Source of the DNA: Eledone cirrhosa
Taxonomy: Eukaryota
Assembly: GCA_964016885.1 (NCBI GenBank)
Contig: OZ024748.1
Span: forward strand, 11,098,001 to 11,162,000
Direction of reading: 5' to 3'
Length of the DNA: 64,000 nt
The notes under the pieces were generated by a model. It made no database searches. It was not told the origin of the DNA and worked only from the letters and a program-made list of their open reading frames with translations. Of the stretch, positions 296-64,000 are shown piece after piece; the first letter of the stretch is position 1, and every line of letters starts with the position of its first letter. The translations under genes and the position numbers were made by a program.

Positions 296-1151
296 TAAAT
301 AAACAAATAATGAAAAATAAAACGAATAATAAATAAATAAATAAATAAACAAAAAGTCATTAAATAAAAAAAAAAACGAAAAATATATTTTAAAAAATCA
401 GTTGTCACAATATGTCGACATTGCAAGTTTACTACTACAGCTCAATTTAAAGTTAGGGTTAATCCTGTCTATAGTTTTCAATAATCCAGAATTTGAAGTC
501 CTTATTAAACTAGGGTTTGGAACATAACTTAATATAGGTTCTTCGATAAAATTATGATGGATAAACACTTTAATCCTTTTGTTCCTATATTTTTAATCGA
601 AAACACTGCCCTTTCAATAATTTTCTAAATAATTTAGACTTTGGAGGGATTACACAAAATAACAACAAAGGTAGTCAGTGAGGAGGTCACAGAACGTGTG
701 ACGAAAGAACGTTGATGGCAATCAACAACTAAACAAGCATCCGGTTATTAAACTAACTGACTGAGAAATTATTATAATAAATTGAAGTGAAATCCGACAG
801 GTGCGTGTGTTTTATATTTTTCAAAGAATAACAATATATATATATATATATATATATATATATATATATATATATATGTGTGTGTGTGTGTGTGTGTGTG
901 TGTGTGTGTGTGTGTGTGTGTGTGTGTGTGTGTGTGTGTGTGTGTGTATGTATGTATGCATACATACATGCACACACACACACGCATACACACATATATA
1001 TATATGTATATATATATATATATATATATATATATATGGGCAACAGAATACTCACACGTATGTTTTTTTCTCCCCAATTTTTTTCTCTCATTTTCCCTGT
1101 TCCTTCCTCTCATCACTCCTTACTTTCTATTTATATTCTATTTCTAACTCT

Positions 1152-1189
1152 GTCTTCTGATAAAGGATTAATGTCCAAAACGTTAAGAC
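1152..1189 (+). ncRNA. Decayed minimal hammerhead motif
   Basis: GTCTT-CTGATAA-A-GGA ttaatg TCC-AAAA-CG-TT-AAGAC; two core G>A changes. Confidence 0.5.
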
Positions 1190-4100
1190 TCTCTTCCTGC
1201 TATTTCAAGCGTTAAACTAATATATTTCTTCTAAGTACTGCACCATTTTTTTTTGTCATTTTTGTTATTACTTATATATATATATATATATATATATATA
1301 TATATATATATATATATATATATATATATATATATATATATATATTTATATATATATATATATATATATATATATATATATAAATTGCAAGTTTGAAAGT
1401 TTGAAGAACTATTAGATAAAATATATACAGTATTTCCTCTTCCTAGTCCGTATAAATCAATCACATAAAAAATCATTTAAACGAGGCTATAAGTTTAAAA
1501 TGTAACTGTGAAGAAATAATAGACAAATGATACAGACTATTTTCCACGATGTACAACCATTATATACATATACCCCTTTGAATTTAATATATATATATAT
1601 ATATATATATATAAACGTTTGTATATGTATAATAAAGCCAAAACAATGCAAGTATGGACATAGAATAAAGAATGCAAATGCAAAAGATATTGTTGACATT
1701 AGTCTTTTACCTTAGGTTTATTTAAATGTCCTTAACTTTCGAGATAATATCTCTTCTTCGGAGGGAAGTAAAGCGGTTAAACCAGTGTTCTAAATAGCTT
1801 GCCAAGTCATGCTGACAGGAAAACACTGGTTTAACCGCTTTACTTCCCTCCGAAGAAGAGATATTATCTCGAAAATTAAGGACATTTAAATAAATCTAAG
1901 GTAAAAGACTAATTGTCAACAATATCTTTTGCATTTGCATTCTTTATTCTATGTCCATACCTGCATTGTTTTGGCTTTATTATACATATTCAAACGTTTA
2001 TACCTCATTACACAATGCTTCAAATGAACTATAACTTCCTCCTATATATATATATATATATATATATATATATATATATATATATATATATATGGCTAAA
2101 CTTCCATAATTTTGAATTAAGTCCCTCCCTCATCCCCCAATTAAATTTAACATCACACCCCTTCATCGTATACTTTCACTACCCCACTTTTAATGCTCCC
2201 CTTCTTTCTTTACTTCTTTCTTTGGCTTCTTTCATCCTTCATTCCTTCTAACCTATTTCTTCAAACCCCCGACACACACACACACACACACACACACACA
2301 CACACACACACACACACACACACACACACACACACACACACACACACACACACACACACACACACACACACACACACAAAAACACACACACACACACACA
2401 CACACACACAGTATTTTTCTTTTAATTCTTCCTGATTTTTAAAGAGATCGAATCTGATTTATAAACCTGTTGAATAGGGTTTGAAATAATGTGTATGTAT
2501 GTATGTGTGTATGTATGTATATATGTGTGTATGTATGTATGTATGTATGCATGTATGTATGTATGTATGTATGTATGTATGTATGTATGTGTGTATGTAT
2601 GTATGTGTGTATGTATGTATGTATGTATGAATGTATGTGTGTATGTATGTATGTATGTTTGTTTGTATGTAGGTATGTAAGTATGCATATGTATATATAT
2701 ATATTTATATATATATATATATATATATATATACATATACACCCATACATACACACACCATATATATGTATGCATTACATATAAGTATGTATTTATTGCA
2801 TATATATATGTATGTATCTATGTATATATCATACATATCGACACATGATTAATCTTAATTATTCATATTATGAATATATATATATATATATATATATATA
2901 TACATATATACACCACCATCATCGCCGATACCACCACCACCACCACCACCACCACCACCACCACCACCACCACCACCACCACCACCACCGACAAACACCA
3001 CAAGAAACAACAGCAGCAGCAGCGGTGAAAAAAACAAAAACAAAAAACAAGAAACAAAACAAAATAAAACAAAACAATTAACATTAAAAAATACGAAAAG
3101 TAAAAATAGAAAATAAAAGATATATGAAACAAAATGGCGGATGATTTTTTTGTTCCGTGTAACCATTGAAAAGATCAATCCCAAGATGGCAGCGAGAGAA
3201 ATGAAACAGTTTAATTCTTCTTCTTCCTGTTGTCAATATAATATTAGTGAGGTGTTTTTCTGAGAAGGACAGCTGCAAAATACAAATCTTCTTCCAGTTC
3301 CAGTTCTCTTCCAGTTCTAGAAATCCTGTAATTTACTGCTGTCATTGCACTCTGTAAAACATGGCGCACCAACGCAGACGATCGTCTTCTTTCTTTCTTT
3401 GCCGTCTTTGTCTTCTTCTTCTTCTTCTTCTTCTTCTTCTTCTTCTTCTTCTTCTTCTTCTTCTTCTTCTTCTTCTTCTTCTTCTTCTTCTTCTTCTTCT
3501 TCTTCTTCTTCTTCTTCTTCTTCTTCTTCTCCGCCCCTCCCTCCCTCCCTCCCTCCCTGTGCTTCTACATCCTCCCCTCTTCCTCTTCCATCCTTTGAAC
3601 TTATCCTCACAACTTCACCCATACACACCAATTCCTAATCTACTATATTTCTATTCACCAGTGGAACAGTGAAGCGAAATATAAGTTATAACTCGTGATT
3701 GAGACTTCATTATGCAGCGAATTGGTGAATTGGCAAATTGGCGAATTGGTAGAGCCGTTAGAGTGTCAGGTTATGTTTTGTGATACTTGCTACGGTTCAC
3801 TCACTCTGAATTATAATAACCCGAGGTCAATAAAAAAAAGTACCAGTCAAGTACTGGGGTTGATTCTTCCTATATATCTAATTCTCCTTTTTTCTCTCTC
3901 ACTCTCGCTATCCTTCTGTTGAAGAAATCTGCTGTGTTCGTCATTTTGAGGTCGATAAATAAAGTACCAGTTCAGAAGGTGTTGGATTAGGCAACTATAA
4001 CAACAACAACAACAACAACAACAACAACAACAACAACAACAACAACAACAACAACAACAACAGCAGCACCACCACCACCACCACCAACAACAACAACAAT

Positions 4101-63178: not shown

Positions 63179-63293
63179 CCGGAAAAAAAGACAGCGTTAA
63201 CGGTTGGAGCTTCCTGGCCTATCCAGAAAGCTCCAACCGTTAAGGTTGTCTTTTTTTCCGGGTATGCCAATATTTTTTTATAAAACAAATCTG

Positions 63294-63359
63294 TATTTTA
63301 TCTGATGAAAGCGCACCATAATTTGCCTTGGTGGCTCTTGAAATATGCATAATAAAATA
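63294..63359 (+). ncRNA. Hammerhead motif family C
   Basis: TATTTTAT-CTGATGA-AAG..CACCA...TGGTG..CTT-GAAA-TATGCATA-ATAAAATA; palindromic stem III. Confidence 0.78.
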
Positions 63360-64000
63360 AATATGGTTTTAAAAATATAGTTTCCATTTATTAATATATT
63401 GTATATATTCATATGATTTATTGATATTTTATCTGAGTGACCCGAATCTTCCTGATCGTAATTTTTCGGTCGTATGGGTGATTTTAGACATAATCTTTGT
63501 GTGTTGGTATTTTAACGATAGTTATAGCTCTGATTTATCTGAATTATTGAGCCCTCTGCCACTCATGTCGAATTTGTTTATCGTGAACTCGTAAGCCGAT
63601 TTTTCGATACTCGATTATTCTACTATATATATATATATATATATTTTATAGTTGAGACAGAAAACAAAACACAAAAAAACAACGTGGAAGCGAAGAGGCA
63701 GTTATATATATACTAGCCAAATTACCCGCGCCTTGATGCGTTTCGCACATTTTTTGGGTAAGAAACTGATGATTTTTGTTGATAATTTTTGTTGTTATAA
63801 TTCTAGTGATGTTTTGCCATAGATAAAATGTCTAAATTAGCCAAATTTTACTATAAAAGAGAGATGCTTTTTTTGTTGATTTACGTTTAATTAATAGAAA
63901 AACTCCGTGGTAATAGAGGTTCCAATACTCAAGTTATGGATTTCCAAAATTTTCACTATAGGGGGTTTAACCCCGATTAGGGTGTCTTAATATTATTGAA

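Follow-up and report, generated by a model that had tools for sequence, protein, structure and literature searches.

The closest described relatives of the DNA considered here are Penelope-like elements (PLEs) and retrozymes. As far as the accessible text of the published work goes, it already covers hammerhead ribozymes in the pseudo-long terminal repeats (pLTRs) of PLEs, many hammerhead families per genome, opposite-strand pairs, U3-A8 cores, a preference for (TA)n, inverted copies, one-sided tails and a link between retrozymes and PLEs. Minimal PLE hammerheads are reported to show no activity in monomeric form and little as dimers (Cervera and de la Pena 2014, PMC4209133). A PLE protein was found to cut both strands of AT-rich DNA and to start at two internal sites on uncleaved RNA, and the ribozyme of the same element to cleave only with protein present (Frangieh et al. 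2024, PMC11167929). No study of PLE hammerheads in cephalopods came up in the literature searched, with subscription papers outside it; an annotation of Octopus vulgaris repeats from 2026 lists 31 recently active Penelope-like families, and the word ribozyme is absent from its main text as accessible (PMC13282606). The present analysis concerns a 64-kb stretch of the 3.0-Gb assembly of Eledone cirrhosa (GCA_964016885.1, contig OZ024748.1, positions 11,098,001 to 11,162,000, forward strand), called the window, in which an earlier note listed 22 hammerhead cassettes, nearly all embedded in (TA)n. We hold with good confidence that these are the 3′ ends of several PLE families, together with two or three protein-free retrozymes, most likely inserted into (TA)n by a Penelope reverse transcriptase (RT)-endonuclease from either of two fixed points on uncut RNA.

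Each of the 22 sites carries a type-I hammerhead motif or what is left of one, as claimed. Fifteen have an exact CUGANGA/GAAA/UH core with stem I (7681, 8064, 18968, 24540, 27462, 27741, 30536, 30884, 39822, 41060, 55630, 55910, 55974, 56393 and 63294), three have variant cores (U4C at 1838, a one-base insertion at 34790 and U3-A8 at 52167) and four are decayed (674, 1152, 29333 and 52742). A strict descriptor finds 7 matches in the window against 0.10-0.23 in dinucleotide shuffles (30 per block size), and a permissive one finds 9 against 0.25 ± 0.49, with a maximum of 2 (40 block shuffles), so that the shuffle comparison proposed with the list came out in its favour. Anchored by the core, stem I is paired at 52 of 56 positions over 14 families and at 24.4 ± 3.7 when strands are swapped (20,000 swaps, maximum 42), a test that is partly circular because the families were initially recognised as hammerheads; two of the four missed pairs reflect a register one base off in family K. 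The Rfam hammerhead model did not recover the motifs: an E-value scan of the window, dominated by microsatellite-like miRNA models, showed no hammerhead among the matches listed (best 150 of 485), and a scan of seven loci at gathering level gave no match. As in PMC4209133, the motifs are mostly single truncated copies from many families, with a U3-A8 variant and some opposite-strand pairs 100-700 bp apart. Ten DNA and two protein searches of the genome place them in 13 families, or 11 with three related ones lumped, where about 10 had been estimated. To cleave, the minimal hammerheads would require dimerisation or assistance from protein, and most single stubs are probably inert as ribozymes.

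The evidence on insertion comes from the ends. In 11 families (A1, A2, B, B2, C, D, E, F, H, I and L) there are two discrete 3′ ends, a short and a long one about 45-120 nucleotides (nt) apart, each followed by (TA)n; family G is seen mostly with the long end. Many insertions are head to head, with two inverted arms that are 90-100% identical. Among head-to-head insertions found outside their own family's search, 35 of 35 classifiable ones pair one short with one long end, where 17.5 would be expected (binomial p 3e-11; four further insertions were unclassifiable), and across all loci the pairing holds in 110 of 114, including three insertions of H and three of I. The arms reach equally far 5′ in 20 of 32 insertions; the short-ended arm extends more than 10 nt further in 8 and the long-ended arm further in 4, so neither arm is always a copy of the other. 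When references trimmed of TA repeats were used, none of 180 arm 5′ ends lay within 3 nt of the ribozyme cleavage site, and 161 extended upstream past it. This agrees with the uncleaved RNA template described in PMC11167929. Between the arms of nine window palindromes, mismatches are scattered, without excess A-to-G editing.

Behind the short end, by about 6-13 nt, lies a bulged hairpin in A1, A2, C, E, F, G, L, H and I. This box consists of a four-pair outer stem (R-Y-T-C with G-A-R-Y), a bulge of one or two bases starting with T, an inner stem-loop and a final RC. The inner stem-loop is unrelated in sequence between families, and its stem is nevertheless paired at 30 of 36 positions over 12 boxes (10.7 ± 3.2 when swapped). 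Eleven boxes are found in the window against 0.57 in shuffles, and 34 against 5-9 in 690 kb of samples from across the genome (69 evenly placed 10-kb pieces at round-number positions). A1, H and I carry a second box behind the long end wherever read-through is visible. No account of the strict short-plus-long rule, or of a covarying hairpin common to Hydra-clade elements and two retrozymes, was found in the literature searched, whose coverage was limited and left supplements and Repbase/Dfam outside; the box is apparently an undescribed cis element.

The earlier note tied the hammerheads to PLEs and regarded the cassettes as non-coding ribozyme retroelements. The tie stands. The non-coding label suits H, I and J, and fails for five families that make up 10 of the 22 sites: A1, B, D, F and K have a PLE open reading frame (ORF) upstream in other copies and are therefore 5′-truncated ends of coding elements. 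RT and, at the C terminus, a GIY-YIG endonuclease share one ORF upstream of the pLTR in B, A1 and D, while only the endonuclease part was seen in F and K. The insertions of these five families in the window are as follows (in these lists, 'unstranded' marks features given no single strand).

8048-9371, minus: family B, 5′-truncated coding PLE whose RT thumb, CX4CxxC linker and CCHH-bearing GIY-YIG are spread over two frames; the pLTR has a minimal hammerhead (core at 8102), and (TA)n lies on both sides; its relative L120 is full-length
673-818, plus: family B, decayed pLTR end with a C3G core
27299-27642, plus: family B, head-to-head insertion with a brief long-ended minus arm and a short-ended plus arm with core at 27466
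39655-39935, plus: family A1 (Hydra-clade PLE), 3′ end with intact core at 39830 and short 3′ end
24497-24822, unstranded: family A1, head-to-head insertion with hammerhead at 24602 on the minus arm and tail plus hairpin box at 24740 on the plus arm
27742-27952, minus: family A1, end with core at 27798 and stem I cut to three pairs
30265-30435, unstranded: family A1, head-to-head remnant absent from the earlier list, tail box at 30352
34765-34998, unstranded: family F, head-to-head insertion whose core has an additional base, tail box at 34935
1610-2042, plus: family D, head-to-head insertion with U4C core at 1850 and a 44-nt tail
52510-52937, plus: family D, second head-to-head insertion, hammerhead at 52754 without A15.1
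1136-1244, plus: family K, decayed pLTR end

Family B accounts for sites 674, 8064 and 27462, and at 8064 the ORF remnant, which had gone unmentioned, lies inside the window itself (8309-9371, minus). All 150 scored matches to this RT fragment, out of 18,654 candidates, are 91-100% identical, and the closest named relative of the protein is from Octopus vulgaris (67% identity). Labels such as L120 denote individual loci of the same assembly retrieved by the family searches; L120 itself reads (TA)n, inverted pLTR, pLTR, an open frame of 1056 amino acids, pLTR and (TA)n, with a hammerhead in every pLTR. Partial tandem pLTRs, an inverted 5′ copy and a one-sided tail are present in L120 and L352. 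The linker and CCHH motif of family B fit the Neptune or Nematis type, in which the pLTR-ORF-pLTR arrangement, the CX4CxxC linker and CCHH are likewise described (Craig et al. 2021, PMC8557442; PMC4209133), and its hammerhead resembles the minimal type of PMC4209133 in the extra base after A9, the G10.1-C11.1 pair and a tiny loop 3. For family D (1838, 52742), L187/L366 have an intact RT-GIY-YIG frame upstream of this end, and for family K (1152), L032 has a Neptune-type endonuclease upstream of the matching sequence; the putative clades of B, D and K go by linker motifs alone. Pfam missed the PLE fragments of the window and gave weak RVT_1 and GIY-YIG matches on full-length relatives.

Family A1 (24540, 27741, 39822) has copies, L352 and L358, in which a pLTR is followed by an ORF with DKT, CxCX5C, CxxC and CxH and no CCHH; L352 is pLTR-ORF-pLTR. 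In family F (34790), CxCX5C is present and a Hydra-type endonuclease lies upstream of the end in L257 and L244. The A1 motifs match the definition of the Hydra clade (PMC8557442, section 11), and the endonucleases upstream of A1 and F carry the Hydra signature. The likeness extends to DKT, the CxCX5C linker, the missing CCHH, CxxC and CxH around a conserved E and N, the pLTR hammerhead, insertion into (TA)n, the inverted 5′ copy and the tail on one end. The differences are that A1 has RWI rather than RWK and a unit of about 3.7 kb, owing to a 3′ untranslated region of about 1 kb, where the clade is generally under 3 kb, and that tails measure about 70-95 nt in A1 and F against 30-40 bp for PLEs in PMC8557442. 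The accessible account of the Hydra clade in PMC8557442 does not include the hairpin box. Many family F copies (e.g., window 34860) have an eight-base core with an extra base between A6 and G8, others the normal seven.

Protein-free tandem units form the second component.

30719-31035, plus: family H, incomplete unit (full length 556 nt) of a tandem retrozyme, core at 30889, short 3′ end
40892-41511, minus: family I, more-than-unit copy of a tandem retrozyme of about 540 nt, hammerhead at 41134, both hairpin boxes
18881-19351, minus: family J, unit of 413 nt with a terminal repeat of 57 nt, core at 19009, two octamer motifs upstream, not adjoining (TA)n

Families H (30884) and I (41060) have one hammerhead per unit. 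A tandem array of H lies on contig C3 near 255.0 Mb, with a period of 556 nt. Family I occurs as multimers, and its hammerhead, with a seven-pair stem I and a stem III of seven to eight pairs, is the best predicted candidate for cleavage as a monomer. Family J (18968) is the same type of repeat, longer than one unit, and also occurs in partial tandems; it is probably a retrozyme like H and I. Octamers of sequence ATGCAAAT lie upstream of the hammerhead in J (19090-19150, minus) and in a 433-nt tandem family (L363:5850-7400); none occurs in the H and I units checked. These octamers resemble an snRNA-type promoter element. H, I and probably J agree with the metazoan non-LTR retrozymes in being protein-free tandem units with one type-I hammerhead each, and those accounts also describe coexistence with PLEs and propose PLE machinery as the mobiliser, as here (Cervera and de la Pena 2020, PMC7229834; Li et al. 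bioRxiv 10.64898/2026.07.22.740005). Units of about 540-556 nt exceed the 150-450 bp of PMC7229834 and fall within the 51-972 bp of the preprint. The retrozyme papers argue from co-occurrence and pLTR similarity, in their accessible text, whereas H and I show the PLE insertion footprint and, twice, the Hydra-type hairpin.

The third group comprises A2 (7681, 29333, 63294), A3 (56393), C (30536, 55910, 55974), E (52167) and G (55630).

7650-7879, plus: family A2, end with core at 7689 and tail box at 7795
29286-29576, unstranded: family A2, head-to-head insertion with C3G core at 29392 (minus) and tail box at 29492
63179-63406, plus: family A2, end with intact core at 63302
56351-56625, minus: family A3, end with core at 56452
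30481-30670, unstranded: family C, head-to-head insertion, core at 30542, four-pair stem III, tail box at 30608
55895-56111, unstranded: family C, head-to-head insertion carrying hammerheads at 55955 (minus) and 55981 (plus), tail box at 56047
52082-52264, plus: family E, hammerhead whose core is U3-A8 and whose stem II is long
42441-42573, 48330-48531, 54447-54496 and 55280-55494: family E remnants
55524-55839, plus: family G, end with core at 55634 and long-looped tail box
21518-21859, unstranded: remnants of families C and L, absent from the earlier list, box at 21788

In family E (L266, L232, L094), one subfamily has a C3/A8 mismatch and another U3-A8.

A hairpin behind the ends and the strict pairing of short with long suggest priming at two sites on RNA. 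The PLE protein, probably as a dimer, would nick a (TA)n tract on both strands, and where the RNA is Hydra-type the hairpins would position it. Each nick would then prime one complementary DNA (cDNA), one from each start point on an RNA not cut by the ribozyme, and both cDNAs would usually stop early and be joined head to head. The Poseidon element PAc of Anolis is alike in its two internal start sites that define the tail, in the cutting of both strands, in its AT-rich target and in insertion without need of ribozyme cleavage (PMC11167929); it belongs to a different clade and starts inside an AC-rich stem-loop, and the ends seen here are found on the 5′ side of a bulged hairpin, a few bases from it. 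For a narrower proposal the balance is about even: that in Hydra-clade elements two small bulged RNA hairpins serve as start signals, each for one target strand, which yields the strict short-plus-long insertion, and that retrozymes with the same pair recruit the Hydra enzyme. Retrozymes would thus hitch-hike by virtue of carrying the same hairpins.

Several observations weigh against insertion of PLE 3′ ends from two points, or against the role given to the hairpin. In the loci sampled, no ORF precedes the ends of A2, A3, C, E and G, families that account for 9 sites, and for A2 in L369 there is no frame of 200 amino acids within 2.5 kb upstream. Single hammerheads fold weakly (z-scores of -0.4 to -2.6), their minimum-energy fold is rarely the full three-way junction, and the usual G10.1-C11.1 pair is missing from A1, A2, C and G. 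In stem I of family C, both sides change at 4 of 7 pairs, barely above shuffles (shuffle rank 204/500 for pairs and 13/500 for cells). Three isolated boxes are of ordinary stability (z-scores of -1.2 to +0.1), and in A1 the inner stem of the second box pairs poorly. Families B and D lack the box and yet have two ends and short-plus-long pairing, so the hairpin is not their general cause. Thresholds for short and long were chosen after the end distribution had been viewed and registers were set by eye, which makes the cross-family tests partly circular, and arm extents were taken from one reference per family. Finally, many family C copies share one inversion junction, in a search biased toward that junction; this could mean a palindromic master copy, not new inversions.

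Most cassettes might instead be independent non-coding elements (ribozyme SINEs, that is, short interspersed nuclear elements, or retrozymes), whose own short RNAs are cut and circularised by the hammerhead and copied by PLE enzymes. This is possible, though clearly less probable than insertion of PLE 3′ ends from uncut RNA. H and I are indeed tandem and protein-free, the hammerhead of I has a stable stem III, and the window copies of I and J exceed one unit. Family C copies are 98-99% identical genome-wide, five families yielded no ORF in the loci sampled, and nearly all C and E arms end 25-55 nt upstream of the cleavage site; some C and E copies, however, reach 140-400 nt further 5′. The extension of five other families upstream into PLE ORFs, and the lack of any start at the cleavage site among 180 arms, also argue against it.

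A further alternative, which we regard as unlikely, concerns the head-to-head shape: a single cDNA would fold back and the endonuclease would resolve the hairpin at the short end, making the box a DNA cutting signal, not an RNA start signal. The tail is ascribed to endonuclease-mediated resolution in PMC8557442, PMC11167929 cites earlier work in which the tail is needed for endonuclease recognition, and the high identity of the arms, with equal reach in 20 of 32, would fit. But in the 8 insertions whose short-ended arm contains sequence missing from the long one, such as that of family B at 27369-27645 (236 against 33 nt), fold-back from a long cDNA cannot produce what is seen; nor could the tail be copied from a short arm, and the inserted DNA does not include the second box, which comes after the long end. 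A third reading, that the motifs match by chance in AT-rich sequence of low complexity or arise from misassembly at microsatellites, can be dismissed almost entirely, for although one satellite (L056) alone gave six false descriptor matches and Rfam returned no hammerhead, shuffled windows gave only 0.1-0.25 matches, stem I pairs far above its strand-swapped level, each of nine DNA-searched families had 290-4,805 first-look candidates on many contigs, and family structure and ORF links refute it.

The embedding in (TA)n is borne out: a tract of at least 12 nt is no more than 250 nt away for 20 of the 22 sites and no more than 330 nt away for 21, the exception being 18968, 1.8 kb from any tract; 45% of non-TA window positions lie within 250 nt. 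Such tracts make up 7.9% of the window against 4.4% of 59 random samples, and in random samples 34 of 39 descriptor matches have (TA)n within 300 nt downstream (background 22%). That most of the islands between tracts are cassettes holds for about 60%: a library of 16 natural terminal pieces, used for counting insertions, matches 23 of 52 complex TA-bounded islands (60-700 nt), and about 8 more resemble ends of additional families. The density of about one per 3 kb is true locally and not genome-wide. The library finds 37 insertions in the window (578 per Mb, 11.4% of its length) and 107 in the 69 samples (155 per Mb, bootstrap 110-200; 2.9% of sampled DNA), so the window is about 3.7-fold above the genome average, and descriptor matches are absent from three of four flanking 10-kb pieces. 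The very high abundance claimed nonetheless stands. After exclusion of the six matches from L056, the 690 kb contain 39 descriptor matches against 1-4 in shuffles, a net of about 52 per Mb. Extrapolation from these samples suggests about 150,000 intact motifs genome-wide, a lower bound because the descriptor misses several families, and 330,000-600,000 such ends. In published counts, Xenopus tropicalis has about 9,000 minimal motifs and the coelacanth 4,000 (PMC4209133), with more than 6,000 reported for Acropora and up to 120,000 for axolotl retrozymes.

Other repeats of the window touch on the same subject. Ends of three more hammerhead families, missed earlier, lie at 34553-34628, 56144-56208, 30164-30242 and 53106-53184; one of the three has a U3-A8 core, and fuller cores occur in L364, L302 and L076. 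Two more palindrome-plus-tail families with a box-like hairpin (24093-24332 and 47886-48046) had no ribozyme located. A TA-flanked repeat at 48188-48301 and 54943-55160 (31 BLAST rows among retrieved loci) places GAAA first, then a hairpin, then CUGANGA, and may be a candidate hammerhead of rearranged order. The window also holds two broken fragments of long interspersed nuclear elements with zf-RVT matches (10923-13976), an RVT_1 fragment of RT split by microsatellites (53343-54422), a Tc1-like helix-turn-helix remnant (50470-50820), a 136-nt tandem array (22116-22964), a 22-nt minisatellite (18086-18800) and a widespread repeat present as a 445-nt inverted pair of 97.5% identity plus a third copy (62143-63180, 46760-47210). 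Elsewhere, L350 (contig C4) and L351 (contig C2) show the same arrangement of about 9 kb in opposite orientation, either a duplication or an assembly duplicate.

As first described, the dense hammerhead cassettes are a dense example of published biology. For annotation, these ends alone make up about 3% of the sampled DNA and are overlooked by Rfam. The added features bear on the origin of the inverted shape and one-sided tail of PLEs and on the enzyme that moves animal retrozymes, and the box offers a defined target of 20-30 nt for mutation in the existing in vitro Penelope protein system. If true, the paired-hairpin proposal would put a name to the enzyme by which animal retrozymes are mobilised and to the cis signal involved, and would do so in a genome with among the largest hammerhead loads yet estimated.

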